Shown in pieces: positions 7,692 through 58,573 of a stretch of DNA of 64,000 nucleotides (its first letter is position 1; every line of letters starts with the position of its first letter). Source of the DNA: Rhodothermales bacterium (GTDB lineage Bacteria; Bacteroidota; Rhodothermia; Rhodothermales; Bin80). Under the pieces are notes generated by a model. The model saw only the letters and a program-made list of their open reading frames with translations. It did not search any database and was not told where the DNA came from. Both the position numbers and the translations under genes were made by a program. The stretch is taken from positions 170,320 through 234,319 of the forward strand of contig OZ241742.1 in assembly GCA_965200955.1 (NCBI GenBank). The letters run 5' to 3'.

Positions 7692-8175
7692 CTTTTTAAT
7701 ATAATGGATAGGTATTGGTTGAATGATGAAAAAGTAGTTGACACTAAACATCAAAACTTCCTCCACATCTATGAATAAAGGACTCAGCTACCTTCAAGCC
7801 ATTAAAGCGAACATCCTTGAAGGTTTTGAAAAATTTCAATCGTAGACTTGTACTGTTTAACACCGCCAATTATCCAGACCCTGAATGAACCATGACAGTG
7901 GTACTTAATCGTTTTTTCTGATATTCTATTAAGGATCAATAGAGACAGATGCCTCCATCATAGCTGGATGAATGAGGAAATGGTCCTAAATTAATCCATG
8001 GATTACTTGAGATCTTCACTGACTAACTTGATTGATAACTCTTAAGAGAATCATTTTTTAAGAATATTTGCACATCTCATTTATGATGAATGTACGTCTA
8101 CAAAACGATTTTGGTAAGTAAAGCGGGTGTAAAAAGGTACCATATGACTTCCGCAGTATAGCAAATAATCGATTC

Positions 8176-40634: not shown

Positions 40635-40853
40635 CTATTGGTGTGGTAATGTCTCTATCATCCCTAAGGCATCTAAGATTTTGATCGCACTTGAAAGCTG
40701 AATATCCTTTTGCTGTCGCTCAAAGCGTGAGACTGTCGGTTGACTAATCTCCACAATCGCAGCCAGACGGCACTGGGAAATGTTTCGTTCCTTGCGTCTT
40801 CTTATCGCTTCTTGGACAAGTAGCCCCCAATTGAGTTGAATGTTCCGTTCCAT
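40635..40853 (-). CDS. XRE-family helix-turn-helix protein (HipB-like antitoxin candidate)
   Basis: IRRRKERNISQCRLAAIVEISQPTVSRFERQQKD is a canonical XRE HTH. The only ATG start overlaps the hipA-like gene by 52 nt. Confidence 0.7.
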   Translation of the reverse strand: MERNIQLNWGLLVQEAIRRRKERNISQCRLAAIVEISQPTVSRFERQQKDIQLSSAIKILDALGMIETLPHQ

Positions 40854-42625: not shown

Positions 42626-45600
42626 ATGATACGAAAACCTACCCTAAAGCCGCATTTCAAAATGGCGGAGAGGCAGAATTTTTTTAAGCAGTTGCTCTGT
42701 GTAGCAGTGCTGATGACCTGCTTCGTCCCTTCAGTACTTGCTCAACAGGGCAAGATTGACGGGGTGGTGACCGATGCTGGCACTGGAGAAACCATTCCTG
42801 GTGCGAGTGTTGTCATTGAAGGGACAACCCAAGGAGCTGCCACGCAAGTGGATGGATACTTCTTTATCAATAATGTACGCCCTGCCACCTACACATTAGT
42901 TGTTTCCTTTGTAGGATATGTCACCCAACGTGTGGAAGGTGTACGTGTATCGACTGGATTGACCACTACAAAAGACATTCAGTTGAGCGAGGATGCAGTT
43001 GGCATGGACGAGATTGTAGTGACCAGTGAACGCCCAATTGTTCAGTTGGATGTATCTGCAAACGTTGCAAGCCTCAACGCAGAGGCATTTGAAGATCTGC
43101 CCGTTGCTGGAGTAACGGAGGTTCTTGATCTTCAAGCCGGAATTGAACCTGGCCTGCGAGTGCGCGGTGGTGGACTCAACGAAGTGGCGTTTGTTGTAGA
43201 TGGTATGAATCTTCGTACTGGGCGTTCCAACGAACCATTTACCAATATCAGCTATACCTCCTTAGAGGAAGTGCAGGTTCAAACCGGCGGATTTAATGCA
43301 GAGTATGGAAATGTTCGCAGTGGGATCGTGAATCTGACCACCAAAGACCCATCTAGAACAAGGTATACGGTTGATGCCATCTATCGCTATGAACCTGCTC
43401 AGGCTAAGACACTTGAAGCACTTGGTGGTATGTCTCTTGATAATTGCACATATCCTACCACGCAGGGCGATTGTGATAGTTGGTTTATTCGACCATTTTT
43501 GGACGAAGACGTTGCATGGGAGGGTACCGGTGCCAAAGATGACCAAGGAAATCCTGTCTGGGATTCATACACACAGAACCAGTATAATTCATTTGAGGGA
43601 TGGAATGCTATTGCGGAGCGACTCAGGAACGATGAAGGGTTTGATGTGACTGCCCAAGATATGCAGGATTATTTTAAGCATACCCACCGAAAAGATAATG
43701 AGATCACTAAACCTGACTATGAAGTAGATGTTACGGTTGCTGGCCCCCTTGTACCAACCATGAGCGACAAATTGGGCGACTTACGTTTTTCCGCCTCCTA
43801 TCGAGGAACTCAAACGGCCTATCTCTATCCTCAAACTCGTGATGCATTTACGTCTCAAACCATTCAAGGTAAGATTATCTCGAATATTTCGCGTGGAATG
43901 AAACTCAGTGTTCAGGGGATGAGAGGGACTGAGCGTGGAATCAATCGGAATCAGGGAACTGCAGATGTTCGGATGTATAACGGTAACATGCCTTCCTATC
44001 CATGGTGGGGAACTGGTGCAGAAACCGTTGATGGCATCAACCGCCGTGGTCGAGTCATCCTCTCTGACGGGGCATTTCCTCTTGCGAATATTGATCACAC
44101 GATGTTAGGGGCCACCTTCACCCATACTCTTAGCCCGAGTACATTTTATGAGGTGAACCTGCAGAATATTTCTTCAAAATATCGCAGTCATTTCCCCAAT
44201 TTACGTGATGGCTCTTTCATTGAAAATAACACATTTACCCCTGTTCCCTATACCAATAACTTTGGTCGATTAACTCCTGCAGGTGAGCAGAATAGAGACC
44301 AAGTCACCTGTTTTGGAGGTGCATCGGATCTCAATGGAGACGGTAAAACTCTACCCTACTGCGTTGGTGATGAGCCTTTCGGATTCTTAGGACAGGGTGG
44401 AAACCTCCTTGGTGGTGCAGAAACGACTGGAGGACACTGGGTCAAAACACGGGATACATCCGATGTAAGCGTTTTCACGGGAAGATTTGATCTGACCAGC
44501 CAAGTCACTCGCGTCTTACAGATTAAGACGGGAGCAGAGCTCATCATCAGTGATTTTGACCTCAATTATAAGAGAGTCAATCTCGCACTGATTGGGCCTG
44601 AACCTGAGGAAGATTTTCCTTTCCAACGTCAGCCGATTCAAGGTGCAGCGTATGCACAGGGAAAACTAGAATTTCAGGGCATGATTGCTAATCTGGGGGT
44701 CCGCGTTGATTTCTATGATGCTAATACGGAATGGTGGGTAACTGACAATCCTTACGATCAGGCTTACCGACAGCGTGCAAATGAACTTGATGAACTTCTT
44801 GATAAGGAAGACCCTGATGCTCAAATCTATATTAGTCCTCGTATTGGTGTTTCTTTCCCTATCTCTAACAATAGCAAACTCTACTTTAATTATGGACACT
44901 TCCGCCAATTACTTCAACCTTTTGACGTTTTTGGTGTGAGACAGTCACGTAATGGAGGTATAGATATTCTGGGCAATCCAGATCACCCAATGCCTCAAAC
45001 GGTTGCTTATGAATTAGGGTTTGACCAAAATCTGTTTGATCAGTACCTGCTTCGAATCAGTGGATTTTATAGAGATATTCGCAATCAGCCACGTCAAGTA
45101 ACCTACAATGGGTTGGGAGGAGTTGTGAATTATCGAATCACTGAGCCATGGAATTATAGAGATGTACGTGGAGCAGAGATCACTCTCACCAAATTGAGAG
45201 GAAATTGGATCCGAGGATTTATCAACTACACCTATCTCCAATCCAAAGGCGGGAATTTCGGATATGGCGTGTTTCACGAAAATACATTTCAGCAACGGAC
45301 GTATTTACGGACATCTACCGACTATCGTCAGGGTTCCTCACTTGCAGAGCCATTTATTCGTGGAAATTTACTGCTCTTGACACCAAGCAGTTTCGTACCA
45401 GAGGTTTTTGACGGTGCTCTGCTCGGCGATTGGCGCGTGAGTCTTTTGGGTGAATGGCGAAAGGGACGACAGTGGAGATGGGCTGGTGGTGGTAGTGCGC
45501 CCCCTGAATTACAGGAGAATGTGAGCTGGCGAAGCTATGTTAACTTTGATTTACGGTTCACTAAGCATATTAACACCCGTTTTGGAGGAGCTCAGTTATT

Positions 45601-46075
45601 TATAGATGTGGCAAATGTATTCAATCGTCGTCATTTATACAATGACACAGGATTCCATCCTGATGGCCGCGATTTTGACCGCTACATGTGGTCGTTGCAT
45701 CTGCCCGAGGATATATTTGATCAACTCAATGCAGTAGACGAAACACTTCCATATGCTGAAAAGACAGGACTTCCTTATACTTGGGTTCCTGGAAATGACC
45801 GCCCTGGAGTCTTTCGTGATCCGGATGTCGTGTACCAACCAATTGAAGCAGTGAAGTCATTAACTGGAGTTTCAGATGCGAATATGACAGCATGGTATTG
45901 GGCGGCGGATACTCAGACGTATTCTCGTTGGAATGGATCCAGTTTTGAAGAAGTTCCTGCCGGTGACGTAGATAAGGTGCTTGAAGACAAAGCATATATT
46001 GATATGCCAAATCTGCGCTTCAATACATTTCTCAACAATCGTCGGATCACACTTGGTATTCGTGTGACCCTATAG
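42626..46075 (+). CDS. TonB-dependent receptor with N-terminal CarboxypepD_reg domain
   Basis: Signal peptide, GKIDGVVTDAGTGETIPGASVVIEGTTQGAATQVDGYFFINNVRPATYTLVVSFVGY, plug (DEIVVTSERP, EEVQVQTGGFNAEYGNVRSGIVNL), then a ~900-aa barrel. The start may be the Met at 42662. Confidence 0.85.
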   Translation: MIRKPTLKPHFKMAERQNFFKQLLCVAVLMTCFVPSVLAQQGKIDGVVTDAGTGETIPGASVVIEGTTQGAATQVDGYFFINNVRPATYTLVVSFVGYVTQRVEGVRVSTGLTTTKDIQLSEDAVGMDEIVVTSERPIVQLDVSANVASLNAEAFEDLPVAGVTEVLDLQAGIEPGLRVRGGGLNEVAFVVDGMNLRTGRSNEPFTNISYTSLEEVQVQTGGFNAEYGNVRSGIVNLTTKDPSRTRYTVDAIYRYEPAQAKTLEALGGMSLDNCTYPTTQGDCDSWFIRPFLDEDVAWEGTGAKDDQGNPVWDSYTQNQYNSFEGWNAIAERLRNDEGFDVTAQDMQDYFKHTHRKDNEITKPDYEVDVTVAGPLVPTMSDKLGDLRFSASYRGTQTAYLYPQTRDAFTSQTIQGKIISNISRGMKLSVQGMRGTERGINRNQGTADVRMYNGNMPSYPWWGTGAETVDGINRRGRVILSDGAFPLANIDHTMLGATFTHTLSPSTFYEVNLQNISSKYRSHFPNLRDGSFIENNTFTPVPYTNNFGRLTPAGEQNRDQVTCFGGASDLNGDGKTLPYCVGDEPFGFLGQGGNLLGGAETTGGHWVKTRDTSDVSVFTGRFDLTSQVTRVLQIKTGAELIISDFDLNYKRVNLALIGPEPEEDFPFQRQPIQGAAYAQGKLEFQGMIANLGVRVDFYDANTEWWVTDNPYDQAYRQRANELDELLDKEDPDAQIYISPRIGVSFPISNNSKLYFNYGHFRQLLQPFDVFGVRQSRNGGIDILGNPDHPMPQTVAYELGFDQNLFDQYLLRISGFYRDIRNQPRQVTYNGLGGVVNYRITEPWNYRDVRGAEITLTKLRGNWIRGFINYTYLQSKGGNFGYGVFHENTFQQRTYLRTSTDYRQGSSLAEPFIRGNLLLLTPSSFVPEVFDGALLGDWRVSLLGEWRKGRQWRWAGGGSAPPELQENVSWRSYVNFDLRFTKHINTRFGGAQLFIDVANVFNRRHLYNDTGFHPDGRDFDRYMWSLHLPEDIFDQLNAVDETLPYAEKTGLPYTWVPGNDRPGVFRDPDVVYQPIEAVKSLTGVSDANMTAWYWAADTQTYSRWNGSSFEEVPAGDVDKVLEDKAYIDMPNLRFNTFLNNRRITLGIRVTL

Positions 46076-46143: not shown

Positions 46144-48486
46144 ATGAAAATTATTTACTCTATGAAAGCGTTTTCTTTGATAGGCATGTTTCTGCTAGTT
46201 TTAGTGCCTTCGGCTAACGCTCAGTTTACTGCTCAATGGCTTGATATCGGTACATTTCACAGCACCTACACCGAATCAGGTGCACAGGACGAAGTTAATG
46301 GTTCTGCACCAGATGGAATGGAGTGGCCCGCCATCTTGCGCAATAGCAGTCATTACAGAGCAAGAGCATTGTGGTTGGGGACAAAGGATTGGACGGATTC
46401 CAATGGGCGTGCCTACCCGTATTTTGTGGCAAGGATTGGTCCTAGAACCTCTGGTGCGGATGTAACCTTTCCCGTACAGAATCGATTGATCAGCAAAACA
46501 GAGGACACTGTAGTTCAGGTAGATGGGTCCACTTCCTTTGACAATGTAGCAATCATTGACGAGGTTGATCCCTCAATTCCTGCGGATCGCATGATTCACA
46601 ACATTCACAATACCTATATCGGGATTACGGTTGATCGTAAGGCTTATGCATATGTGAATCAAGTTCATGATGACTCTAATGTGATAGAGTACGTCTATAC
46701 GAATACAGGAAATACTGACGAGGATGAAGATATTGAGTTACCCGATCAGAATTTGAAGGAAACCTATTTTTTTCGTATCCATAGACTCCGTGGAAATTTA
46801 CAAGGAGCTTGGGCTGTGAGTGGCGGGCAGGTATGGGGTAAGTTCAGTATGATTGATGTGGTTGGAGATGGGCATGCAGACTATCCAATCTCGTTTACAT
46901 CACAATATCTCTGGATTGGAATTGACCCTGAAACGCAGGGGGACTATGATCGTTTTGGTGGTTCGCTCTTTAATCAGCGGTCAGATTGGCCTCCAGGAGA
47001 TACTCTCGGCCGTCTGTCAGGTGCTACCTTTATCGGTCGTGCTACGATTCATGCCGATAACTCTCCAACGGACCAAACCTACATTCGCTGTACAACCGCT
47101 ACTCTCAATACTTGTCAGCCGTCTACCATGGGATTTATGGATCAGGATGAGGCACTTACTTCTGACGGAAGTTCTCATGAGGACTATTACGAGTTAGGAA
47201 TTCGTACCAGAGAAAACCCTGATCGAATATCTGGTGGATCTGCTCAAATGTTTCCACATTATGCGGATCGAATTGAACCTGATGGCACTTTTTGGGAACC
47301 AACAAATGATTCTTCTACTGGAAAGCAGGGTGGGCATGCATTCACAACGGCTTATGGCCCTTATGATTTTGCCCCAGGAGAAAGTGTACGTATTGTTGTC
47401 GTTGAGGGGGTTGGTGGGCTGTCTATTGATGCCAGTACCCGAATCGGTAGAGCATTTAAGCTGGGGGGGGATGATAGAGATACTGACCTGATTAGGTATG
47501 ATGCCAATGGAGATGGGATGATTCAGACTGGAGCATTTGATTATAGCATCAAACAGATGGATACTGATGGTGATGGAATGTTTGATACATTCGGTCATGG
47601 GCTAGAAGAGATGACCAAAAATCAATGGGTTGTAACAGCGAGAGATTCACTGTTTGAGGTCTTACAGCGTACGATTAATCTGTATGCAGCCAGTAATAAT
47701 ATGAGTACATACCCTATCCCTGAGGCACCGCACTCCCCCCTGACGTTTTCTATTACTGGACGCCCAGATAAAGTTGAAATCACATGGACGAATCCATCTG
47801 GAGGGCCTGCCCGAACGGCATGGCAGTTGTATCGGACCTCACGATTTGAAGACAATATTTACGAAAATTGTCTTAGCCTTGATACTCGACAGTTCGTAGA
47901 TGGATCTAATCCGTCAGATCCAGCTGATCCATCTTCCTCTCAGCAACAACACTGTGACTATGAACTCATTGCAACGCTTGATGCAGGTGCACAGTCATAT
48001 GATGACACAGATCTAAACCGAGGAACGGACTATTACTACTATTTACAGGCGATTGGAGGACCACAGCCCAGTGATCCAGATGGTATCACTGGCACTCCTA
48101 ATGGGGTCCCCCTCCGTAGTTCTCGCTACCTCACTCAAACCTATCTGCCCGTGAATCTGAAACGTCCACCTTATGGATCAACTTCATCTGTTTCAGATGC
48201 ACGCATTGTTCCGAATCCTGTCAACCTTGGCTCTGATCCAACGATACGGTTTGATCAGGAGGACAGAATTGCTTTCTTCAATATCCCTGGCGACTGTACG
48301 ATTAAGATCTATACGGAGATCGGAGAATTGATTCATACAATTGAGCATAACGATGGAAGTGGAGATGAGCTATGGAATCTCACCACTACATCTAGACAGT
48401 TGCTTGTCAGTGGAATTTATATTGCCGTGATCACTGATAATAGTAACGGTGAAGAAGCCATTCAGAAATTCACGGTCATCCGATAG
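46144..48486 (+). CDS. Secreted hypothetical protein with T9SS-like C-terminal sorting domain
   Basis: Signal peptide LIGMFLLVLVPSANAQ. The C-terminal ~90 aa ARIVPNPVNLGSDPTIRF...CTIKIYTEIGELIHTIEH...LVSGIYIAVITDN...KFTVIR resemble a por-secretion tail. Confidence 0.65.
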   Translation: MKIIYSMKAFSLIGMFLLVLVPSANAQFTAQWLDIGTFHSTYTESGAQDEVNGSAPDGMEWPAILRNSSHYRARALWLGTKDWTDSNGRAYPYFVARIGPRTSGADVTFPVQNRLISKTEDTVVQVDGSTSFDNVAIIDEVDPSIPADRMIHNIHNTYIGITVDRKAYAYVNQVHDDSNVIEYVYTNTGNTDEDEDIELPDQNLKETYFFRIHRLRGNLQGAWAVSGGQVWGKFSMIDVVGDGHADYPISFTSQYLWIGIDPETQGDYDRFGGSLFNQRSDWPPGDTLGRLSGATFIGRATIHADNSPTDQTYIRCTTATLNTCQPSTMGFMDQDEALTSDGSSHEDYYELGIRTRENPDRISGGSAQMFPHYADRIEPDGTFWEPTNDSSTGKQGGHAFTTAYGPYDFAPGESVRIVVVEGVGGLSIDASTRIGRAFKLGGDDRDTDLIRYDANGDGMIQTGAFDYSIKQMDTDGDGMFDTFGHGLEEMTKNQWVVTARDSLFEVLQRTINLYAASNNMSTYPIPEAPHSPLTFSITGRPDKVEITWTNPSGGPARTAWQLYRTSRFEDNIYENCLSLDTRQFVDGSNPSDPADPSSSQQQHCDYELIATLDAGAQSYDDTDLNRGTDYYYYLQAIGGPQPSDPDGITGTPNGVPLRSSRYLTQTYLPVNLKRPPYGSTSSVSDARIVPNPVNLGSDPTIRFDQEDRIAFFNIPGDCTIKIYTEIGELIHTIEHNDGSGDELWNLTTTSRQLLVSGIYIAVITDNSNGEEAIQKFTVIR

Positions 48487-48543
48487 ATGAGTTTGCATCT
48501 GTTCAACGGATTTAACACTCGTCTCATTAACACATACAACGAA

Positions 48544-49605
48544 ATGAAAACGTATACATTCTTTTCTACACTGGTTGCACTCATGTTCGTGGGTGTATCC
48601 ATGTCTTACGGGCAGGCAGGCCTGACTCCCGATACAGAAGTGACCACCGACAAGCGCGGTCAGACGGGCATGAAATTTTTAAGTGTTTCCGTCGATGCCC
48701 GCTCTGCGGCCATTGGATCTGCGATGACGGCAGAGATGTCGGGTTCCTCGGTGTCAATGTTCTACAATCCTGCCAGTATGGGATTTATGGAAGGTAGAAT
48801 GCATGGTGCTGCCACCACCATGTCCTATATTGCAGACATCAATTACACACAGGCCAGTATTGCATTCCGCCCCAGTCAGGTCGTCAACTATGGGGTCGTG
48901 GGCGTATCAATCGTATCGGTTGACTATGGTGATTTTATTGGCACGATCCGTGCCAATAATGACGATGGTTTCGTGGAAACGGGTAATTACAGCCCCACGG
49001 CTATGGCTCTTGGGATTGGATATGCACGCTCATTCGGCGATCGTTTTTCGGCCGGAGCCAATATCAAGGTGGTCTATCAGGATTTTGGAAGTGGGTTTGC
49101 GACCTCTCAGAACTTTGACTCCGGGGAAGTACTCACCACAGATGAGTATAACCTCCAGTCGGTTGCCTTTGACTTTGGCATTGTCTACGCCACTGGTTTT
49201 GAAAGCTTGGTTATTGGCATGAGTGCACGTAACTTTTCTGGCGAACAAACCTATGTTCGAGAGCGGTTTGAACTGCCGTTGACCTTCCAGATTGGCGTGT
49301 CCATGAACTTGGTGGACCTCACCTCCATGAACCCAGACATGCACAATATCCAGCTGCATGTGGATGCTCAGCGTCCGCGTGACTTTGCAGAGCATATTCG
49401 GTTTGGACTGGAATACACTCTGATGGATATTGTCTTCCTGCGAGGAGGCTTTCAGCAGTTGGGAGTCAGTGAGGAACAGGGATTCAGTGCAGGTGCAGGT
49501 CTCAAGTATGGGTTTGGGAACCTACGCTTTGGGGCGGACTATGCCTACACCCAATTTGGAGTCTTTGGTGCCGTCAATCGCATTTCAGTTCAGATAGGGT
49601 TATAA
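48544..49605 (+). CDS. PorV/PorQ-family outer-membrane beta-barrel protein
   Basis: Signal peptide MKTYTFFSTLVALMFVGVSMSYGQ, then GQTGMKFLSVSVDARSAAIGSAMTA (the FL-x-x-x-x-x-AR-x-x-A-x-G-x-A lead motif of PorV-like proteins). Aromatic-rich barrel ending ISVQIGL. The track ORF begins at 48487. Confidence 0.6.
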   Translation: MKTYTFFSTLVALMFVGVSMSYGQAGLTPDTEVTTDKRGQTGMKFLSVSVDARSAAIGSAMTAEMSGSSVSMFYNPASMGFMEGRMHGAATTMSYIADINYTQASIAFRPSQVVNYGVVGVSIVSVDYGDFIGTIRANNDDGFVETGNYSPTAMALGIGYARSFGDRFSAGANIKVVYQDFGSGFATSQNFDSGEVLTTDEYNLQSVAFDFGIVYATGFESLVIGMSARNFSGEQTYVRERFELPLTFQIGVSMNLVDLTSMNPDMHNIQLHVDAQRPRDFAEHIRFGLEYTLMDIVFLRGGFQQLGVSEEQGFSAGAGLKYGFGNLRFGADYAYTQFGVFGAVNRISVQIGL

Positions 49606-49648: not shown

Positions 49649-49686
49649 GGCGGAGAATTGGAGTAATCCAGTTCTCCGCCTTTTTT
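49649..49686 (+). terminator. Rho-independent terminator of the receptor/PorV-like operon
   Basis: GGCGGAGAATTGGA-gtaa-TCCAGTTCTCCGCC (14-bp stem with one G-U pair, GNRA tetraloop) followed by TTTTTT. Confidence 0.85.
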
Positions 49687-49805
49687 ATGGTAAAAGATTA
49701 CCAGTGACATTGGTGATCTCAGTTGTTTGCGGACCATAATACCAGACAGATCATCATCGCATGTATTCGGTTATAGACAATACTGTAACCTATCACTATC
49801 AAAAA

Positions 49806-50562
49806 TATCAATCTACGGGTATGGAAATTGCAAATCTACCGACATCTATCTTGCAAATCTACCAACATCTATTTTGCAAATCTACGGGTATGAAAACTGC
49901 AAATCTACCGACATCTATCTTGCAAATCTACGGGTATGGAAATTGCAAATCTACCGACATCTATCTTGCAAATCTACCAACATCTATTTTGCAAATCTAC
50001 GGGTATGAAAACTGCAAATCTACCGACATCTATTTTGCAAATCTACGGGTATGAAAACTGCAAATCTACCGACATCTATCTTGCAAATCTACGGGTATGG
50101 AAACTGCAAATCTACCGACATCTATTTTGCAAATCTACGGGTATGAAAACTGCAAATTTACCGACATCTATTTTGCAAATCTACGGGTATGAAAACTGCA
50201 AATTTACCGACATCTATTTTGCAAATCTACGGGTATGAAAACTGCAAATCTACCGACATCTATTTTGCAAATCTACGGGTATGAAAACTGCAAATCTACC
50301 GAGACCTATCTGCAAATCTACGGGTATGGAAACTGCAAATCTACCGACATCTATTTTGCAAATCTACGGGTATGAAAACTGCAAATTTACCGACATCTAT
50401 TTTGCAAATCTACGGGTATGAAAACTGCAAATCTACCGACATCTATTTTGCAAATCTACGGGTATGAAAACTGCAAATCTACCGAGACCTATCTGCAAAT
50501 CTACGGGTATGGAAACTGCAAATCTACCGAAGCGTATAATGCAAATCTACCGAAAACATAAT
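49806..50562. repeat. Tandem array of 33 phased 23-bp units (46-bp A+B super-unit), non-coding
   Basis: Parsed unit by unit. A is TGCAAATCTACCGACATCTATTT and B is TGCAAATCTACGGGTATGAAAAC, sharing the 11-nt core TGCAAATCTAC. There are 31 units of 23 nt plus 2 of 22 nt (TGCAAATCTACCGAGACCTATC), totalling 757 nt. Higher-order repeats are present: 50197-50333 is identical to 50380-50516 (183-bp offset), and a 115-bp offset occurs at 49829/49944. Confidence 0.95.
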
Positions 50563-50614
50563 CTCTTGATTGAGACTCTGAGATTAGACTACACCTATTA
50601 TTTCTCAAAAACTA

Positions 50615-51880
50615 ATGAAAGTTTCGGATTCTAATATGATTCCACGTGCATCTGAGTTATTGCTTGCCGAGGCGCTTGAAGATACACCAATTGTTCTCAT
50701 CCAAGGGCCACGGCAATGTGGAAAAACGACGCTCGCCAAAAAGGTTGGACAGCTACGAGATTATTCTTACTTCACATTTGATGACGAAGATACCCGACAG
50801 TATGCAGAAGATGACCCAAGAGGGTTTGTAGACAATCTACCGAGTCATACCATTCTTGATGAGGTACAATATGTGCCAAAATTGTACAGAGCAATCAAAG
50901 TATCAGTGGATGAAAACAGACTACCAGGAAGATTTATCCTGACGGGGTCAACCAATCTGCTACATGTTCAGGGATTTGCTGACGCGTTTGTGGGTCGTAT
51001 GCAGATCGTGCACCTGCATCCATTGTCCCAACAGGAGATTGAACAAAATGGCTCCGCCAATTTCGTAGAAAATCTATTTAGTGAGACGTTTAAGACCGGA
51101 AGGTACGAGCGCTTAAAGAGTAACCTTTCAGAGAGAATTGTATCTGGAGGCTATCCAGAGGTACTTACCCGTATCTCTGATCGTACCCATCTTCCTTGGT
51201 ACCAAAGTTATGTTGAATCTCTTGTTCAGAAAGATGTCGTCAAGTTGGCCAAGATTCAATCATCTGAAACATTTCCTCAAATACTGGCTGCCGCGGCCAG
51301 CCTATCAAGTCAACTTTTGAATGTTTCTTTCATCGCAAAGAAACTGAAGATGAATCATCATACCGTGAGAAATTATTTGACTCTACTGGAACGCCAGTTT
51401 CTGATTGAACGGCTACCTGTTTGGTATAACAATCAATTGAAACGCCTCATAAAAACACCTAAGATTCACATTGGCGATACTGGGATTGCAAGTAGTTTGC
51501 TTAGAACCAATGCACAATCTCTGCGGAAAAATCGTTCATTGTATGGGCAGCTTGTTGAATCTTTTGTCTTACAGGAATTAAAACGACAGGCAAGTTGTTC
51601 GTATGAACCATATAAATTCTATCATCTTCGGGATCAAGATGGCTTTGAAGTAGATATCATCATAGAACTCGGTGCATTTGAATTAGTGGGTATCGAAGTG
51701 AAGTCAGGTGCATCTATCGATAGATCTGATTTTAAGGGATTGAGAAAATTGAGGGATTCTCAAGAAGATCGATTTAAATGTGGTGTGTTGTTCTATGATG
51801 GAGAGTTCTGCAGAAAGTATGGTGACAGAATATACTCTGCACCTATTCGCATGCTCTGGGAAAGTGAATCAATCAGATAG
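50615..51880 (+). CDS. AAA ATPase with wHTH and DUF4143-type PD-(D/E)XK-like C-terminal domain (COG1373-like)
   Basis: Walker A IQGPRQCGKTTLAK, Walker B HTILDEVQYVP, wHTH-like HHTVRNYLTLLERQFLIERL. C-terminus GFEVDIIIE...LVGIEVKSG has a D...E-x-K pattern. Confidence 0.8.
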   Translation: MKVSDSNMIPRASELLLAEALEDTPIVLIQGPRQCGKTTLAKKVGQLRDYSYFTFDDEDTRQYAEDDPRGFVDNLPSHTILDEVQYVPKLYRAIKVSVDENRLPGRFILTGSTNLLHVQGFADAFVGRMQIVHLHPLSQQEIEQNGSANFVENLFSETFKTGRYERLKSNLSERIVSGGYPEVLTRISDRTHLPWYQSYVESLVQKDVVKLAKIQSSETFPQILAAAASLSSQLLNVSFIAKKLKMNHHTVRNYLTLLERQFLIERLPVWYNNQLKRLIKTPKIHIGDTGIASSLLRTNAQSLRKNRSLYGQLVESFVLQELKRQASCSYEPYKFYHLRDQDGFEVDIIIELGAFELVGIEVKSGASIDRSDFKGLRKLRDSQEDRFKCGVLFYDGEFCRKYGDRIYSAPIRMLWESESIR

Positions 51881-52108: not shown

Positions 52109-53833
52109 ATGATATCACTAGCACATTGTATCCATAGATACGGGATTATTCCTATTTTTTCTGTCCTTTGGTGGGGGCTCGGTTGCCAGAGTCCACAGGA
52201 GCCTCAAAAAGAGTACATTCAACTGACTGAAGTAACCTCCGAGTCTGGTCTTGGTATGTTTCGGCATGATAATGGTGCAGATGGTAAGAAATACTATGCC
52301 GAGCAGATGGGCTCGGGAGCTGCCTTTGTGGACTATGACGGAGATGGCTGGCTGGATATTCTTCTTGCAGGGGGTGGATTCTGGGATCGCATGCCACATC
52401 CCTGGTATAAACCCCTATGGATGTATCGGAATGTAGGTGATGGCACATTTGAAGATGTAACAGATGATGTCGGACTCCGAGATCTTCATGCCTACACGCT
52501 TGGACTTGCTACCGCCGATTATGATAATGATGGAGATCAGGATATATTGGTCACCAACTTGAATGAAAACATGCTTCTTGAAAATATGGATGGAGTGTTT
52601 AGACAGGTAGGTGAATCTGCAGGCCTTGCTTCTGAGGATGAGTGGAGCAGCTCTGCCCTCTGGGTAGATGCCAACCTTGATGGGTGGCTTGATGTATATG
52701 TTGGAAATTATGCGGACTGGACTCCAGAAACCGATAAATTCTGCCCCGAAGGTGGACTTGAGAAACTGTACTGTATCCCTGCGGATTACGAAGGGATGCC
52801 AAGTCGTTATTATCAGGCCGTGGGAGATGGATCCTTTATAGAACGCACACATGAATCTGGATTATATCATTCACTTGGGAAAGCCCTCGGCATCGCCGAA
52901 TGGGATTTTAATCAAGACATATGGTCGGATTTGGTGGTGGCCAATGACGGAGAGGGCGATCTCTTTTTTCTCAATAATGGGGATGGTGGGTTTTCAGAAC
53001 GAGGCGTTGAGAGTGGCATGGCTTTCAGTGAACATGGGGAAGCTCGTGCAGGAATGGGGATCGACATCGGAGTCGTAGATACAACCGGTACTCCCACGAT
53101 CTTTGTAGGAAACTTTTCCTCAGAAATGATCGGCGTCTATCACTATTTAGGCAATGGCTTGTTTAAAGATCGTGCGGCCATTTCTAAGATTGGTCAACCC
53201 AGTTTAAATACACTCACCTTTGGTCTCATGCTCTTGGACATTGATTTGGATATGGATCTGGATCTGTTTGTAGCCAATGGGCATGTCTATCCCGATCGGC
53301 TGGTGGGACAGGATAAGATCACCTATGAGCAGAAAGCACAGTTATTTGAAAATAATGGGCATGGATTTTTTCAGGAAGTGTCACCGTCAAGGACTCTGCC
53401 ACTAACCATCGAGATGGTCGCCCGCGGGGCTGCTTATGGTGACTATGACCGCGATGGAGATCTTGATCTACTCATCGTCGAAAATAACGGGCCCGTCCAC
53501 CTGTGGCGCAATGATGCTCAAGGCCGTAACTGGCTTCGTGTCACCTTGACGGGCACCGTTGGCAATCGAGATGCATTTGGTTCTCGAATTCGTATCTATG
53601 CCGGAGGACAAGTTCAAGAGCGTCGTATTCGTTCAGGATCCAGTTATTTGTCTCAGAACGAAATCGTCGCCTCATTTGGATTAATGAATATTGAAGTCAT
53701 TGATAGCATCAGAGTAGACTGGCCCATGAATCATTCACAAGTGTTGTATGATCTGCCCGTGAATACGGAAATTCATATTACAGAGGGGCAACAGGGATGG
53801 ACGCAACGCCCGATGTCTGGAATCATTCATTAA
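52109..53833 (+). CDS. CRTAC1-family protein (FG-GAP/VCBS repeats + ASPIC/UnbV domain), paralog 1
   Basis: Lipobox WWGLGCQS. Repeated DYDGDGWLDI/DYDNDGDQDI/DYDRDGDLDL calcium-binding loops. C-terminus GTVGNRDAFGSRIRIYAGGQVQERRIRSGSSYLSQNE...VDWP. Confidence 0.85.
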   Translation: MISLAHCIHRYGIIPIFSVLWWGLGCQSPQEPQKEYIQLTEVTSESGLGMFRHDNGADGKKYYAEQMGSGAAFVDYDGDGWLDILLAGGGFWDRMPHPWYKPLWMYRNVGDGTFEDVTDDVGLRDLHAYTLGLATADYDNDGDQDILVTNLNENMLLENMDGVFRQVGESAGLASEDEWSSSALWVDANLDGWLDVYVGNYADWTPETDKFCPEGGLEKLYCIPADYEGMPSRYYQAVGDGSFIERTHESGLYHSLGKALGIAEWDFNQDIWSDLVVANDGEGDLFFLNNGDGGFSERGVESGMAFSEHGEARAGMGIDIGVVDTTGTPTIFVGNFSSEMIGVYHYLGNGLFKDRAAISKIGQPSLNTLTFGLMLLDIDLDMDLDLFVANGHVYPDRLVGQDKITYEQKAQLFENNGHGFFQEVSPSRTLPLTIEMVARGAAYGDYDRDGDLDLLIVENNGPVHLWRNDAQGRNWLRVTLTGTVGNRDAFGSRIRIYAGGQVQERRIRSGSSYLSQNEIVASFGLMNIEVIDSIRVDWPMNHSQVLYDLPVNTEIHITEGQQGWTQRPMSGIIH

Positions 53834-53835
53834 TC

Positions 53836-55503
53836 ATGCGTCACATTTGTGTTTTGCTGATCGGAGTGATCCTCGTGGCGGGATGTGGTCAAGTGACTAC
53901 TCAAGAACTCAATGCCCCTTTGATTCAGTTAACAGATGTCACTGAAGAAGCTGGATTGGCAGGGGTTGTACATGTCAATGGTGGGTTTGGAGAATCCTGG
54001 GCTCCCGAAATTGTCGGTGGGGGAGGTGCTTTTTTTGACTATGATCAAGACGGATGGCAGGATATCCTCGTCGTGACTGGCGGTGCATTTGAGGGAGAGA
54101 GACTCCTCGGCGCACATCCTGCATTGAGGCTCTTTCGCAACCTCGGCAACGGAGGCTTTGAAGAAGTAACCCAGCCTGCCGGACTGTCTATCCTGAGGGT
54201 ATACAGTCTCGGCGTGACGATCGGCGATTATGATAATGACGGTGATCAGGATATTTTTGTGACTACTGTGGGTAATGATCTGCTACTCCGTAATCAAGGG
54301 GGAATTTTTGAGGAAGTGGGGGAAATAGCTGGAGTTGGGCAGGTCAGTGAATGGAGCACCAGTGCAATGTTTTTTGATGGCAATCGAGATGGCTATTTAG
54401 ATCTTTATGTCGGGACCTATGTTCATTGGACTCCCAAAGATGATATCTATTGCAGTTTTGGAGGAAATAAAGTGTACTGTACTCCCGAAGTCTATGAGGG
54501 CATTGCAAGTCGGTATTATGAGAATCAAGGAGATGGTTCCTTCAAGGATGTGACTGAACAGGCAGGATTTTTGGGGGGGGTGGATGCGATTCGTGATAAA
54601 ACGCTGGGAGTTGCCGAGCTGGATGTCAATCAAGACGGATGGCCTGATGTAGTGGTTGCCAATGATACAGAACGGGATATGCTCTTTATGAACCAAGGAG
54701 ATGGCACGTTTCTGGAAAACGGAATCTACAGTGGAATTGCCTATGATCAGCATGGGAAACCACGGGCTGGAATGGGGATTGATGTTGGGGTAGTTGATGA
54801 TTCAGGAGAACCCTCCATTTTTATCGGAAATTTTTCACACGAAACGGTCGGAGTCTACAAACATAGAGGCAATGGAAGTTTTACTGACCGTGCCGCTACA
54901 TCACGAATTGGACTGCCGAGTTTTAAGACCTTGACCTTTGGGTTAGTCCTTTTTGATGTTGATCTGGATGCAGATCTAGATTTGCTCATTGCAAACGGCC
55001 ATGTTCAAACCCATATCGCACAGATTGTGGATGGAATCACGTTTCGTCAACGTCCTCAACTCTTTCTGAATGATGGAACAGGCATCTTCTCAGAGATGCC
55101 CGCAGACGGTGCGCTGAAAGAAACGTTTGTGGGGCGTGGACTGGCAACGGGGGATTATGATCAGGACGGCGATTTGGATGTACTCCTGATCGAGAATAAT
55201 GGACCCGCCCATCTGTGGCGCAATGATCTCCAGGAAAAGAAATGGCTTCGCGTTCAACTGACTGGAACGATCAGCAATCGCAATGCGTATGGTGCACAAA
55301 TTCATCTCTGGAGTCAAGGAAACATGCAGGTTCGGCGCATCCGAAGTGGATCAAGTTATCTGTCACATTCTGAGTCTGCAGCATTTTTTGGATTGCAGCA
55401 TGTTCCAGACAGCTTATTGGTACGATGGCCCAGCGGGCTGGAAACACGTCTGTATGAAATACCCGTCAATACGACGATACATCTTGAAGAAAATGGGATC
55501 TAA
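53836..55503 (+). CDS. CRTAC1-family protein, paralog 2
   Basis: Same architecture as paralog 1. Lipoprotein signal MRHICVLLIGVILVAGCGQ (ATG at 53836, 3 nt after the paralog 1 stop). GTISNRNAYGAQIHLW...RRIRSGSSYLSHSE. Confidence 0.85.
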   Translation: MRHICVLLIGVILVAGCGQVTTQELNAPLIQLTDVTEEAGLAGVVHVNGGFGESWAPEIVGGGGAFFDYDQDGWQDILVVTGGAFEGERLLGAHPALRLFRNLGNGGFEEVTQPAGLSILRVYSLGVTIGDYDNDGDQDIFVTTVGNDLLLRNQGGIFEEVGEIAGVGQVSEWSTSAMFFDGNRDGYLDLYVGTYVHWTPKDDIYCSFGGNKVYCTPEVYEGIASRYYENQGDGSFKDVTEQAGFLGGVDAIRDKTLGVAELDVNQDGWPDVVVANDTERDMLFMNQGDGTFLENGIYSGIAYDQHGKPRAGMGIDVGVVDDSGEPSIFIGNFSHETVGVYKHRGNGSFTDRAATSRIGLPSFKTLTFGLVLFDVDLDADLDLLIANGHVQTHIAQIVDGITFRQRPQLFLNDGTGIFSEMPADGALKETFVGRGLATGDYDQDGDLDVLLIENNGPAHLWRNDLQEKKWLRVQLTGTISNRNAYGAQIHLWSQGNMQVRRIRSGSSYLSHSESAAFFGLQHVPDSLLVRWPSGLETRLYEIPVNTTIHLEENGI

Positions 55504-57178
55504 GTGGAGAGTCCTTCAGATCAGTGCACTTTTTTTGCTGGCCTGTTTCGTAGGATGTAGTCAATCAGAGCCTGAGTCCAATGATTCTGAGCCATCTCTG
55601 CGAGATGTACAGATTGTTTTTACTGATGTGACCGAAGCGTCTGGATTGGGCATGTTCCGGCATGAAACGGGAGCATTTGGGGAAAAATGGTTTCCCGAAA
55701 CAATGGGGGCAGGTGGCGGTTTTTTTGACTATAATGGAGATCAGATCCTCGACATTGTGCTCGTAGCCGGAAGTGAATTTCCATCGGACTCTACCGTAGA
55801 GCAGCCTGCACTTCGCTTGTTTCAAGGAAGCTCAGAGGGAACATTTATAGATGTGACTACAGAATCTGGATTAGAATCAATTCGTAGTTATGCTTTTGGT
55901 GTGAATGCCGCTGACTACGATAATGACGGAGATGCTGATCTCTTTGTCACAGCATTATTTAAAAATTTTCTCCTTCGTAACGATCAAGGATTTTTTCAAG
56001 AAATCACCGAAGAAGCCGGTCTTGGACAGTATCGTGAATGGAGTACGGCAAGCGTATTTTTTGATGCAAATGTGGACGGATGGCTGGATTTATATATTGG
56101 CAATTACGTCCAATGGACTCCAGAAATAGATATCTTCTGCACGAGAGTAGGTGATAAAAAATCCTATTGCACACCAGAACAGTACGAAGGAATTTCTGGA
56201 CGATTTTATGTGAATCAGGGTGACGGTACGTTTGAAGAACGCTCCGAGGATTTTAGTGGGCTTCCTGGGAAGACACTTGGTGCTTCAAGTTTAGATTACA
56301 ATAAGGACCGTTGGCCCGACTTGATTGTCGCCAATGACACCCAGAATGATCTTTTGTTTGAAAATAAAGGCGATGGCACATTCATTGAAAAAGGAGTTAC
56401 CAGTGGGATAGCCTTTGATGAAAATGGACGGGCACGGGCAGGGATGGGCCTTGAAATGGGAGTCGTAGATGAGACGGGAGAAGAAACCGTGTTTATTGGA
56501 CATTTTTCTGGCGAAATGGTGGGAGTCTATCGCCATGCTGGTAGCGGAATTTTCATTGAACGAGCAGCTGTTTCCCAGATTGGACGGACAAGTCTTCCAA
56601 CGCTCACCTTCGGAATGATCCTTGCAGATTTTGACCTTGATAGCGACCTTGACTTGATCACGGCGAATGGTCACATCACCGATGATATTGCAGAAGTCGA
56701 AGAAGGAATCACCTTTAAACAACTCACCCAGATGTATATTAATGTTGGCAATGGACGATTTTCAGTCGCAGAGCCAATTGGTGTACTTTCAGATTCACTG
56801 TTAGGACGCGGTGCTGCATGGGCAGATTATGATGGTGATGGGGATCCAGATGTATTGATTACCGAAAATGGAGGCCCTGCCCACTTATGGCGTAACGATA
56901 CTGAACCTGGGCACTCTTTGACGGTGCAGTTGATTGGAACCCAGAGTAACAAAGACGCGATTGGCACCCGTGTTCGCCTTAAAGCCAATGGATCATGGCA
57001 AGAACGCTATGTCCGTAACGGGACCAGTTATCTATCCCAAAGTCAGCAGTGGCCGGTATTTGGACTTGGGATGGTAGAAACCGTAGATTCCTTAGAGATT
57101 CTCTGGCCCAGTGGAATCTTGAACCAAATGTCAACGATACCGGCTGGGATGCTCACATTGATAGAAGGTGAACTGTGA
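55493..57178 (+). CDS. CRTAC1-family protein, paralog 3
   Basis: Lipoprotein signal MGSKWRVLQISALFLLACFVGCSQ (ATG at 55493, 11-nt overlap with paralog 2). GTQSNKDAIGTRVRLKANGSWQERYVRNGTSYLSQSQ. The track ORF start at 55283 lies inside paralog 2. Confidence 0.8.
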   Translation: MGSKWRVLQISALFLLACFVGCSQSEPESNDSEPSLRDVQIVFTDVTEASGLGMFRHETGAFGEKWFPETMGAGGGFFDYNGDQILDIVLVAGSEFPSDSTVEQPALRLFQGSSEGTFIDVTTESGLESIRSYAFGVNAADYDNDGDADLFVTALFKNFLLRNDQGFFQEITEEAGLGQYREWSTASVFFDANVDGWLDLYIGNYVQWTPEIDIFCTRVGDKKSYCTPEQYEGISGRFYVNQGDGTFEERSEDFSGLPGKTLGASSLDYNKDRWPDLIVANDTQNDLLFENKGDGTFIEKGVTSGIAFDENGRARAGMGLEMGVVDETGEETVFIGHFSGEMVGVYRHAGSGIFIERAAVSQIGRTSLPTLTFGMILADFDLDSDLDLITANGHITDDIAEVEEGITFKQLTQMYINVGNGRFSVAEPIGVLSDSLLGRGAAWADYDGDGDPDVLITENGGPAHLWRNDTEPGHSLTVQLIGTQSNKDAIGTRVRLKANGSWQERYVRNGTSYLSQSQQWPVFGLGMVETVDSLEILWPSGILNQMSTIPAGMLTLIEGEL

Positions 57179-57283: not shown

Positions 57284-58573
57284 ATGAAGATACCGAATCC
57301 AGATGCCCTATGGGTAACTCTTTTCTGTTTGATCATTTTGATATCTGGCTGTCAGCAGCCCGAGAGAATTGCCGAAAAGCAGAGGCAGCTTCTTTCTCCA
57401 ACCGTTGCTAGGTACATGGTTGAAGCCGAAAAGGCATTTAGCCGCGGAGTGTATGAAGTGGCTCTGGCGTACACCGACAGTGCAGAGGTTCATTTTGCCG
57501 ACTTAGCAGATCTTCATTTTTTGCGTGGAAAAATCTATACCCAACTCAATCGAATTGATGTCGCCCAGGCTGCCTATCAGGTCGTCTTGGAAATCGATCC
57601 ATACTATCCAGGGGCAAGATTTGATATGGGGCTCAACAGTTTTCGGCGGGGCAAACTACGTGATGCCGTTAATTATTATCTGGCAGAAGAATCCGAGGTT
57701 GGACCATCCACTGCTCTCTACCATGAACTTGGACGGGCTTATGCAAAGTTAGGAGTACCAGATAGTGCTATAGCTGCGTATGAACAGGCTCTTTCCATTG
57801 ACCCTGAACATACGACGACCTATATGTGGCTTGGTCAATTACTGGAGGAGACGGGAGATCTGCATGATGCTCTGGAGATGTCTCTGGCCGGTTTGAACTT
57901 ACGACCAGATGATTTAGACTATCAGTATATCGTTGGCACCCAGTATTTTCGTCTGGATTCTGCCGAGGCAGCTCGTCCATACCTTGAAACCGTTGCACAA
58001 CATTGGTCTTGGCATCATGGTGCACAGTTCAACCTTGGACAGGTATATATGAGGCTTGGTCTAGAGGATGATGCACAGGTTTATTTTGAGCGTGCTGAAA
58101 AGGCACAGCAGTTGCAACAACGCGTCAACGAAGCTCAGAATGCCATCAATAACGACCCAGGATCACCAGCGAATTGGATTGAACTTGGCAACCGCCTGCG
58201 AGAATCAAAAAAGTACGGCCGTGCCATTGAAGCCTTCAAGAATGGGTTGACGATTGAAGTTCCATCAGGACTTGCATTGTTTATGCAAACCAATATTGCG
58301 ACCTTATATATTGAATGTGGAGACTATGACGAAGCCATCAAGCGGTTGGAAGCCATTTTACGTGCTGATCCAGATTTGAGTGCTGCCCGATTGAATCTTG
58401 GTGTAGCATATGTACAAAGTAGAATGCCAGATGCAGCTCGTAACGTATGGCTTGAACTCTTGGATCGAGAACCAGACCATTTGATTGCTCAGAATTATTT
58501 GCAACAATTAGACGATTGGAATCAGAACAACAATGTGGAAAAAAGTACTACTGATTGTAGTGATCATGGCTAA
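57284..58573 (+). CDS. TPR-repeat lipoprotein
   Basis: MKIPNPDALWVTLFCLIILISGCQQ, then ~34-aa TPR-like repeats (AYQVVLEIDPYYPGARFDMGL, AYEQALSIDPEHTTTYMWLGQ, etc.). Confidence 0.75.
   Translation: MKIPNPDALWVTLFCLIILISGCQQPERIAEKQRQLLSPTVARYMVEAEKAFSRGVYEVALAYTDSAEVHFADLADLHFLRGKIYTQLNRIDVAQAAYQVVLEIDPYYPGARFDMGLNSFRRGKLRDAVNYYLAEESEVGPSTALYHELGRAYAKLGVPDSAIAAYEQALSIDPEHTTTYMWLGQLLEETGDLHDALEMSLAGLNLRPDDLDYQYIVGTQYFRLDSAEAARPYLETVAQHWSWHHGAQFNLGQVYMRLGLEDDAQVYFERAEKAQQLQQRVNEAQNAINNDPGSPANWIELGNRLRESKKYGRAIEAFKNGLTIEVPSGLALFMQTNIATLYIECGDYDEAIKRLEAILRADPDLSAARLNLGVAYVQSRMPDAARNVWLELLDREPDHLIAQNYLQQLDDWNQNNNVEKSTTDCSDHG

Follow-up and report, generated by a model that had tools for sequence, protein, structure and literature searches.

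Why a chromosome should hold, immediately before a single gene, several hundred base pairs of short non-coding repeats is the question raised by the locus described here. Within the 64-kb stretch of Rhodothermales DNA that was analysed (hereafter the window; a Bacteroidota-type genome with a GC content of 43.5%), 33 direct 23-bp repeats stand in register on the + strand at 49806-50562 (757 bp), and the gene that follows on the same strand at 50615..51880 was identified with Pfam and PADLOC as encoding a 421-aa AAA_14/DUF4143 ATPase-nuclease of the candidate defence family PDC-S01. The initial annotation of this DNA had left several readings side by side, namely an operator or iteron-like array for the adjacent ATPase, a centromere- or partition-like site and a contingency locus, and had held that no standard feature class explains the array. 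The comparison of related loci presented below appears to fit the first of these readings, as the repeats travel with the gene, keep their orientation and their distance to the start codon, carry a core that tracks the protein lineage and precede a gene whose product has a predicted winged helix. With moderate confidence, based on comparison of sequences and predicted structures, the array is considered to be probably the hyper-expanded cognate binding sites, in other words an iteron-like autoregulatory operator, of the downstream AAA+-winged-helix-PD-(D/E)XK protein. It would most likely represent the amplified form of a repeat set whose ancestral form had 3-5 copies, and a class can be proposed for it after all, since it is best filed as hyper-expanded operator repeats before a binding-protein gene. 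The units are read as candidate cognate sites because the only constant companion gene of the repeats is that of the ATPase-nuclease, whose protein has a winged helix.

Organisation of the repeat array

Unit counts and Tandem Repeats Finder (TRF) both bear out the 33 phased units that had been described, 31 of which measure 23 bp and two 22 bp, the shorter ones having the GAGACCTATC form and lying at 50289 and 50472. Each unit of the array (49806..50562, + strand) is built on the core TGCAAATCTAC(C/G)G followed by a tail of type A (CGACATCTATyT) or type B (GGGTATGrAAAy). The earlier statement that every unit begins with TGCAAATCTAC was slightly overstated, as the exact core occurs in 29 of the 33 units, TGCAAATTTAC in three and a degenerate TATCAATCTAC in the first, while the rest of that description of the array stands. 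Similarly, the alternation of A and B tails into a 46-bp super-unit holds through most of the array and agrees with the TRF period of 46 (16.2 copies, 90% matches), but it is broken at the 5' end (A'A''B) and in the last two units. The 115-bp duplication (112 of 115 positions identical) and the 183-bp periodicity (TRF period 183, 3.2 copies, 96%) were both recovered as proposed, and the higher-order periods found in the arrays are 46, 69, 115, 183 and 230 bp.

When up to one mismatch was allowed, the core TGCAAATCTAC gave 34 matches in the 64-kb window, 32 of them inside the array, compared with a mean of 1.36 in shuffled sequences, none of 100 shuffles reaching 34. No core was found on the minus strand within the array, and apart from the two remaining matches of this search the core occurs nowhere else in the window. 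The GC content of the array is 37-38% throughout, against 43.5% for the window. The units lie head to tail and their number varies among related genomes, as in a tandem repeat or minisatellite (variable number tandem repeat, VNTR).

Three other classes were tried and rejected. A coding sequence does not fit, in agreement with the initial annotation, as stops occur in all six frames (longest open stretch 114 codons) and the array lengths of orthologues differ by non-multiples of 3. An array of clustered regularly interspaced short palindromic repeats (CRISPR) does not fit either: the units abut without unique spacers, as had been noted, their 12-nt tails recur as two or three types, and there was no Cas family match among the scanned flanking genes (window 40.8-59.8 kb). 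As for a structured or known RNA, Rfam at gathering score gave only one tRNA elsewhere in the window, and the fold z-score of the array is -0.12.

The repeats are inherited with the gene

Contigs encoding graded relatives of the ATPase protein were inspected for repeats upstream of the gene (the loci are designated by L numbers). All inspected relatives at 38-97% identity carry direct 22-23-bp repeats at the same place and in the same orientation, and one at 37.7% has a palindrome. The repeat-bearing relatives belong to Bacteroidota, Rhodothermales, Nitrospira, Planctomycetota, Acidobacteria and Proteobacteria, covering at least six phyla and about 12 genomic contexts, and the repeats always lie on the coding strand, usually in 3-5 units and in the clade of the window in 5-46. 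The repeats are, in short, co-inherited with the gene of a predicted DNA-binding protein at a fixed place and in a fixed orientation.

Syntenic with the window are L011 and L012 (both 97% protein identity), L013 (88%, with a 69-bp super-period) and L015 (78%), whereas L014 (89%) has different neighbours (TamB, HhH-GPD and ApbE). The comparison of copy number that had been suggested in the initial annotation could be made between the related genomes that hold these loci, and it gives 33 units in the window, 30 in L011, 21 in L012, 46 in L013, 23 in L015 and 5 in L014. L017 (72%) carries 4-5 units in an LRR/SWIM context and L020 (67%) ~15 units in a BNR/thymidylate-kinase context. At greater distance, 2+2 units are present in the Rhodothermales loci L024 and L028 (57-59%, core TGACATTCAGCCG / TGATATTTAGSCG) and in L029 (55%, core TGACAATCTGCCG), 3-4 units in L033 from Planctomycetota (52%, core CTTGCAATCAGACGG) and 3 units in L034-36 from Acidobacteria (52%). 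L031, from Nitrospira sp. M1 (OZ224217; 52%), has 5 units with the core TTGCAATTGGMCG, ending 24 nt before the start, and lies in a type I restriction-modification (R-M) operon with the gene order hsdM-hsdS-73-aa open reading frame (ORF)-ATPase-hsdR (L031 939-7694, the 5-unit array included); this embedding is the type of context that gave PDC-S01 its candidate-defence label. Among relatives on plasmids (33-42% identity; hosts Agrobacterium, Marinobacter, Mesorhizobium, Tateyamaria, Spartinivicinus, Novosphingobium and Sulfitobacter), seven of eight have direct repeats (L037-L042 and L045), in the form of 3-4 units at 22-23 bp that touch the ribosome-binding site or the start codon.

A lag test gave a top lag of 22/23 (or 44-46) in 14 of 14 distinct proteins at 52% identity or above and in none of seven relatives at ~30%. 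As a control, the upstream regions of other genes in the same loci showed a repeat signal in 4 of 81 cases and a lag of 22/23 in 0 of 81, compared with 8 of 8 for the target genes, and across 136 kb from nine loci the core motif was confined to the arrays. When one genome per species was scanned for two cores in adjacent position, only two loci, L001 and L002, were returned. The first holds an ATPase orthologue (82% nucleotide identity; most likely P0004, of 87% protein identity) with ~14 degenerate 23-bp units directly upstream, and the second is taken up below, where the proposed reading is weighed. A metagenome protein scan returned only ~30% identical relatives, which have no direct repeats and were used in the palindrome group described below.

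Some further features of these and other contigs were recorded. In L001, the ORF located upstream of the array (1438-2382) combines a DruA-like region (Druantia) with a transposase DNA-binding domain, and in L024 a 993-aa protein with only a faint N6_Mtase match lies upstream and an IS110 transposase downstream; these neighbours point to defence-island or mobile contexts for some copies. In L013 (7608-9900), an insertion sequence with a DDE_Tnp_1_4 transposase lies between the ATPase gene and the FG-GAP genes, and a 123-bp tandem duplication is present at 7949-8177. Viral contigs gave no match to a 20-base pattern and one match to a looser 18-base pattern, for which ~1-2 chance matches are expected by rough estimate: in L050, an IMG/VR contig of 4152 bp, two to three copies of GTCAAATCTACCGTTTG spaced by 23 bp (3560-3640) stand right after a 108-aa HTH_36/winged-helix ORF. 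The contig has no DUF4143 gene, and these copies may be an unrelated phage or plasmid iteron set.

The downstream ATPase-nuclease and its predicted winged helix

The 50615-51880 product matches AAA_14 (E 2.6e-27) and DUF4143 (E 1e-41) in Pfam and PDC-S01 in PADLOC (E 9e-150) over residues 7-417, that is full-length, and it is 97% identical to P0001. Together with this full-length match, the intact P-loop GPRQCGKT and the intact PD-(D/E)XK motif place the gene in PDC-S01. Its AlphaFold2 model (predicted local distance difference test score 89, predicted template-modelling score 0.90) comprises an AAA+ core, a helical lid, a winged helix and a C-terminal alpha/beta domain of PD-(D/E)XK type. The AAA+ ATPase core, supported by AlphaFold2 and Foldseek, covers model residues 1-135 and includes the P-loop (50636..51040, + strand). 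The predicted winged helix, with three helices and two wing strands at residues ~208-282 (51257..51481, + strand), holds a candidate recognition helix …MNHHTVRNYLTLLE and, in the family alignment, a conserved wing KRLIKTPKIH. The nuclease-type domain (51533..51877, + strand) carries the conserved residues E308, D340 and E354-x-K356 in model numbering. The winged helix-turn-helix and PD-(D/E)XK-like domains that the initial annotation had attributed to this product are consequently both present in the model, with conserved motif residues.

Foldseek matched the model to the archaeal AAA+ ATPase SSO1545, RuvB, clamp-loader subunits, Orc1/Cdc6 on origin DNA, DnaA and Apaf-1, matches that reflect, as far as the model goes, the AAA+-lid-winged-helix architecture. 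A sequence search of the PDB with the protein found no match, no solved structure being close in sequence, and the protein matched no Rep or initiator family in Pfam and no family at all in NCBIfam. DUF4143 is listed as a PD-(D/E)XK family (PMC3424549). PDC-S01 is defined as an ATPase fused to a PD-(D/E)XK domain and is an untested defence candidate (PMC12988326; 10.1101/2024.01.29.577857), ranking as the fourth most common defence (candidate) system in prokaryotes with ~39,000 loci in one survey (PMC12988326). The searchable literature contained no account of a function or of a cis-element for DUF4143, PDC-S01, COG1373 or AAA_14, an absence that is not proof.

A conserved core that differs between protein lineages

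When the loci were weighted equally, unit positions 5-13 (AATCTACCG) held 0.8-2.0 bits and tail positions 16-23 held 0.1-0.7 bits. A conserved core of ~10 nt, different from one protein lineage to another, contrasts with a drifting 12-nt tail. In the family alignment, lineages that differ in their core also differ in the first residues of the recognition helix, and lineages with the same core share these residues, the helix MNHHTVRN being associated with the core TGCAAATCTACCG, MNRNT.. with TGACAATCTrCCG, LSRPTIRD with TTGCAATnrGmCG and NHVTT(R/Q)K with TTTCAAwnnGTC. The wing KR(L/M)xK(T/S)PK is nearly invariant across the family. The conserved core thereby varies with the protein lineage, though phylogeny confounds the co-variation of helix and core.

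Expansion between fixed edges

Both ends of the array are recognisable in orthologous loci. The distal, degenerate first unit (TATCAATCTACGGGTATGGAAAT; 49806..49828, + strand), identical in L011 and L012 and similar in L014, is the fixed left edge, and the two promoter-proximal units (50517..50562, + strand), which have tails of their own (…CCGAAGCGTATAA and …CCGAAAACATAAT) and of which the first includes a TATAAT hexamer, form the anchored right edge in the alignment of orthologous loci. These two gene-proximal units lie 120 and 97 nt (within 3 nt) from an internal MIPR codon in the window, L011, L012, L013, L014, L001 and L015. As the proximal units are anchored and the first unit is common to close strains, the expansion is internal, between fixed edges. 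Alternation of two unit types is also seen in L013 and L015 and in the 2+2 layout of L024 and L028, and it predates the expansion.

Strains with 95-97% identical flanks differ in both the order and the number of units (window 33, L011 30, L012 21), although short-read assembly may have collapsed some of these counts; L011 has 11 identical units in a row and L012 has 5. With the higher-order periods, these differences support the ongoing unequal exchange that had been suggested for the array. Large arrays of 21-46 units persist in each of the four species-level lineages at the syntenic site despite turnover of the tails, which is a weak hint of maintenance. Blastn and alignments define a block common to the window and L014 (49542..52004, + strand) that runs from the last ~65 nt of the PorV-like gene through the terminator, the array and the ATPase gene to ~124 nt downstream; this block being at a different genomic site in L014, array and gene have moved together. 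Short-read contigs of several samples start or stop in or beside the array (L016 1-113; L021-L023 1-157; L012 1; L011 contig end), and the repeats are a recurrent assembly breakpoint beside DUF4143 genes.

The leader and the start codon

Between the array and the gene lies a 52-nt leader or promoter region (50563..50614, + strand; …CTATTATTTCTCAAAAACTAATG) that is conserved in the alignment of five orthologous loci, so that the distance of 52 bp from array to start codon given earlier is correct. ATG 50615 is the conserved start, as it is retained in the five orthologous loci while the second ATG is CTG in L001. A sigma-70 promoter scan gave fewer matches than shuffles, with nothing convincing near the ATPase gene and no confident promoter assignment, and no acceptable -35 was found at 16-18 nt from the TATAAT of the penultimate unit. 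The last-unit TTGCAA of L031 and L034 is followed after 18 nt by TACGNT and, 6 nt further on, by the ATG, a spacing that corresponds to the -35/-10 geometry of a leaderless start. Homology of the L002 leader to that of the window is too weak to claim.

Palindromes in distant relatives

In DUF4143 relatives at 25-37% identity, an inverted repeat is mostly present instead, 0-61 nt ahead of the start codon. The strongest of these palindromes exceed 100 of 100 shuffles and 9 of 12 have p <=0.01; that of L005 has p 0.37, yet it is the same inverted repeat as in L003 and L007, (T/C)GTGTAAwTTTGCA-N7-TGCAAwTTTACAC (L003 site 2950-2985, with L005 and L007 alike in relative position). Some of the distant palindromes contain the half-site TGCAAATTTACAC, which is nearly identical to the window core TGCAAATyTAC; for L003, L005 and L007 this half-site is TGCAAAwTTTACAC. 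Another palindrome, ACCTTGCAA…TTGCAAGGT, was found in L049, and others lie upstream of the genes in L043, L044, L047, L048, L008 and L009. As the palindromes of distant members occupy the position of the repeats, a site before the gene is a family trait, and the head-to-tail form belongs to one large clade.

Proposed mode of action and points that weigh against it

If the array is the operator of the protein encoded behind it, the winged helix would read the core, and several protomers may be loaded next to one another, two helical turns apart, as in AAA+ initiators. The proximal units would abut or overlap the promoter, and their occupancy would control the transcription of the gene itself, most likely by repression; in the Nitrospira and Acidobacteria relatives the TTGCAA of the last unit would occupy the -35 position of a leaderless transcript. 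The extra units would have arisen through replication slippage and unequal exchange between identical units. The array can be amplified because its sites are direct, a palindrome not permitting such expansion. Once formed, the extra units could be neutral or, alternatively, serve as a sink or loading platform for buffering the amount of free protein.

Several points weigh against this proposal. The step from co-inherited to bound is an inference throughout, and the confounding of the core and recognition-helix co-variation by phylogeny bears on the same step. In L002 (OZ244061), a Rhodothermales chromosome, three 23-bp units that carry the core of the window (CTGCAAATCTACC…, with a B-like tail TATGAAA) at 3527-3600 on the minus strand precede by ~70-90 nt an AAA_16 ATPase gene (2229-3458, minus strand) that has weak BrxD/Orc1-like matches and is unrelated to DUF4143, in a region resembling an integrative and conjugative element, with VirB8, VirB6/TrbL, TraG and fragments of a group II intron reverse transcriptase nearby. 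The element can therefore exist without an adjacent DUF4143 gene, which implies either a regulatory cassette captured by another gene, regulation in trans or another binder. Moreover, L003 and the window have rather different recognition helices but nearly the same half-site, which could indicate a shared third factor. Were the promoter to lie entirely downstream of 50562, the array would exert its effect from upstream, and the regulation could be of either sign. Any role may be confined to the few proximal units.

Alternative explanations

It is unlikely that the repeats bind another factor, either RNA polymerase sigma at -35-like unit starts, which would make a tandem promoter array of them, or a regulator encoded elsewhere, with the ATPase merely regulated. 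The unit part common to all lineages, TTG(A/C)(C/A)A, resembles a -35 box, the last unit in L031 and L034 is exactly at the -35 position and the same units precede the unrelated ATPase of L002. However, the lineage-specific part of the core (CTACCG, CTGCCG, CAGCCG, TGGMCG, TGGTCG) shows the same degree of conservation as TTGCAA, a 23-bp period makes the -10 position of each unit coincide with the TTGCAA of the next, the motif was not found elsewhere in the window, and it is improbable that Bacteroidota, Nitrospira, Planctomycetota, Acidobacteria and Proteobacteria share a host factor acting solely at this gene. The Bacteroidota -7 element has the consensus TAnnTTTG, and a match to it, TAGATTTG, is found when the window core is read as its reverse complement; a -7 box reading of GGTAGATTTGCA, in which TAGATTTG is contained, was nevertheless rejected, as the TTTG of this minus-strand match is lost in L015 and L020 and the next TTTG is 15 nt away, not ~19. 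Still less probable is a neutral or selfish minisatellite, a short ancestral sequence that was prone to slippage by chance and grew, in which neither the array nor the ancestral repeats bind anything. Copy number does vary widely, between 5 and 46, the higher-order repeats, like the stretches of identical units (11 in L011), bear the marks of unequal exchange, and the array has neither a stable RNA structure nor an Rfam match at gathering score, but the 10-nt core is kept at 0.8-2 bits while the tail drifts, the 22-23-bp period, the orientation and the start distance are kept across phyla at 38-97% protein identity, and a palindrome substitutes at the same position in the remaining family; neutrality may apply to the size of the expansion only. 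A contingency locus, in which gain and loss of units would switch or tune expression of the ATPase and the variability would be selected, is given the same low probability as the neutral satellite. It would account for the differing number and order of units between 95-97% identical flanks (33 in the window, 30 in L011, 21 in L012) and for the 21-46 units held by four syntenic species-level lineages despite tail turnover, but the anchored proximal units and the constant leader leave the spacing of promoter and gene unaffected by copy number, and the counts in L011 and L012, which seem to be short-read assemblies (as we presume for L012 from its contig name k141_), are possibly collapsed. We know of no contingency locus with 23-bp units in tens of copies. 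This explanation is compatible with the operator proposal and does not exclude it.

It is, in turn, very unlikely that the array is the replication origin (iterons or repeats like origin recognition boxes, ORBs) or the partition centromere of a mobile element, whether integrated or former, for which the ATPase would initiate replication or drive segregation. The protein has a fold similar to those of Orc1/Cdc6 and DnaA, sites of ~20 bp at a 22-23-bp period lie beside the gene of a DNA-binding protein, relatives are common on plasmids (325 records), L002 is in a type IV secretion system region and the block moved as a unit in L014. Against this, DnaA boxes at one mismatch number 22 versus 20.8 expected, none being in or beside the array; there is no AT-rich unwinding element in this array of 37-38% GC; integrase, relaxase, Rep and Par genes are missing from the 2.4-kb block; in four lineages the locus keeps its synteny, flanked by genes of housekeeping type; one relative (L031) is inside a type I R-M operon; plasmid copies of the gene are apart from, or additional to, the typed replicon; and the conserved nuclease motif is not a feature of initiators. 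The centromere- or partition-like site that had been considered initially is specifically disfavoured, as no partner of ParA, ParB or ParR type accompanies this chromosomal locus, which lies between type IX secretion system (T9SS)-type and FG-GAP genes and whose L031 counterpart is in an R-M operon. Finally, an artefact of assembly, the outcome under which the initial annotation would have been withdrawn, is extremely improbable. Tandem repeats longer than a read do cause misassembly and several short-read contigs break at the array, but independent assemblies from various samples and sources (NCBI, ENA, JGI and Logan) hold it at the same place, it is present in L013 (46 units) and L014 (5 units), which we take from their contig names (ctg..._294x_l for L013) to be long-read assemblies, and its internal variants follow an ordered higher-order pattern, so that the exact copy number alone could be wrong.

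Relation to known systems

Plasmid iterons (P1 oriR/incA, F ori2/incC, RK2 oriV, R6K, pPS10 and pSC101), to which, along with operator repeats, the array would come closest in function, resemble it in being direct repeats upstream of the gene of a binding protein. They are ~17-22-bp repeats at a period of ~22-23 bp that overlap the promoter of the gene of their own winged-helix binder; the binding protein autoregulates, and extra iteron clusters titrate it or pair together. In contrast, the protein encoded here is an AAA+ ATPase with a nuclease domain and not a WH1-WH2 Rep, the locus is chromosomal and syntenic, with no replicon and without DnaA boxes or an AT-rich unwinding element, and there are 33-46 copies compared with 3-14 in plasmids. 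Archaeal Orc1/Cdc6 proteins and their ORB and mini-ORB sites share the AAA+-lid-winged-helix fold (PDB 2qby is among the Foldseek matches) and the placing of repeated boxes beside the protein's own gene. The ORBs are, however, inverted pairs around an unwinding element, Orc1/Cdc6 has no nuclease domain, nothing here indicates an origin, and the Foldseek likeness is architectural only (template-modelling score ~0.25, 12% identity).

Partition centromeres (F sopC, 12 x 43 bp; R1 parC, 10 x 11 bp upstream of parM; pB171 parC) likewise are long head-to-tail repeats by an ATPase gene, and in those of the upstream type the array includes the promoter and mediates autoregulation, copy number being dispensable above one or few. 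Such systems need a centromere binder (ParB, ParR or ParG) and a Walker-type or actin-like ATPase, whereas the 2.4-kb block, which holds a single gene, has neither, and the locus is not on a plasmid. The operators of toxin-antitoxin and abortive-infection systems offer another parallel, a winged-helix protein acting on repeats in its own promoter: AbiEi binds inverted repeats in its own promoter, and distant DUF4143 relatives carry such palindromes. Unlike AbiE-type operators, the sites of the window subfamily are direct and not inverted, hence amplifiable, and the predicted binder is also the ATPase-nuclease effector. With bacterial minisatellites or VNTRs, the array shares head-to-tail units, concerted evolution, higher-order repeats, copy differences between strains and breaks in short-read assemblies; it differs from them in that the sub-motif, the period, the orientation and the position relative to one gene are conserved across phyla. 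As regards PDC-S01 itself, the downstream gene is a full-length member, and L031 shows the embedding in a type I R-M operon that is typical of the family.

Surroundings of the locus

The strong terminator that had been placed ~120 bp before the array was confirmed as an intrinsic-terminator-like hairpin with a T-run (49649..49690, + strand), whose 14-pair stem (49649-49680) has 8 G-C pairs and is followed by the tail TTTTTTATGG. It is conserved in L013, L014 and L015 and closes a SusC-like/PorZ-like/PorV-like gene set. This set includes, by family matches, a SusC-like TonB receptor (42626-46075), a protein with a weak, sub-threshold match to the PorZ/T9SS sorting domain (46144-48486) and a PorV/PorQ-family protein (48487-49605). 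Before it, a HipA-like kinase toxin gene (Couple_hipA and HipA_C) lies at 40802-42013 on the minus strand.

Downstream of the ATPase gene are three FG-GAP/UnbV_ASPIC genes and a TPR gene. The ORF calls for the second and third FG-GAP/UnbV_ASPIC genes (53797-55503 and 55283-57178) overlap by ~220 nt, and the start at 55283 is probably over-extended, since the third gene as called in L011 and L012 is ~70 codons shorter. Inside the TPR-protein gene, a 24-bp unit (CCGACAGAGCAGAGCTTCATTTTG, 78% matches) occurs twice (window 57474-57520) and is kept in L011 (7866-7912) and in L012 (7759-7805).

Significance

The upstream repeat or palindrome of the PDC-S01 family appears to be undescribed, and the array itself is of unusual size. 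The array exposes a probable DNA ligand for a very abundant and uncharacterised family of ATPase-nucleases, and so provides PDC-S01 with a candidate DNA partner consisting of a core of ~10-13 nt with lineage-specific variants in two architectures, direct repeats and palindrome. For annotation, such arrays explain the repeated contig breaks beside DUF4143 genes in short-read metagenome assemblies. The clade of the window may moreover serve as a natural experiment, with one candidate operator at 5 to 46 copies, for the titration of a DNA-binding ATPase-nuclease.

A wider proposal, advanced tentatively and judged rather doubtful, is that PDC-S01 ATPase-nucleases would each have a cognate site read by their own winged helix, in one large clade as a head-to-tail set of 22-23-bp iterons and in most lineages as a palindrome, and that the amplified set of 20-46 copies in some uncultured Bacteroidota would be a loading platform or sink which holds the nuclease inactive as a DNA-bound oligomer and sets the threshold for its release or activation. 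If this were true, the array would be a self-DNA 'parking site' for an immune effector.

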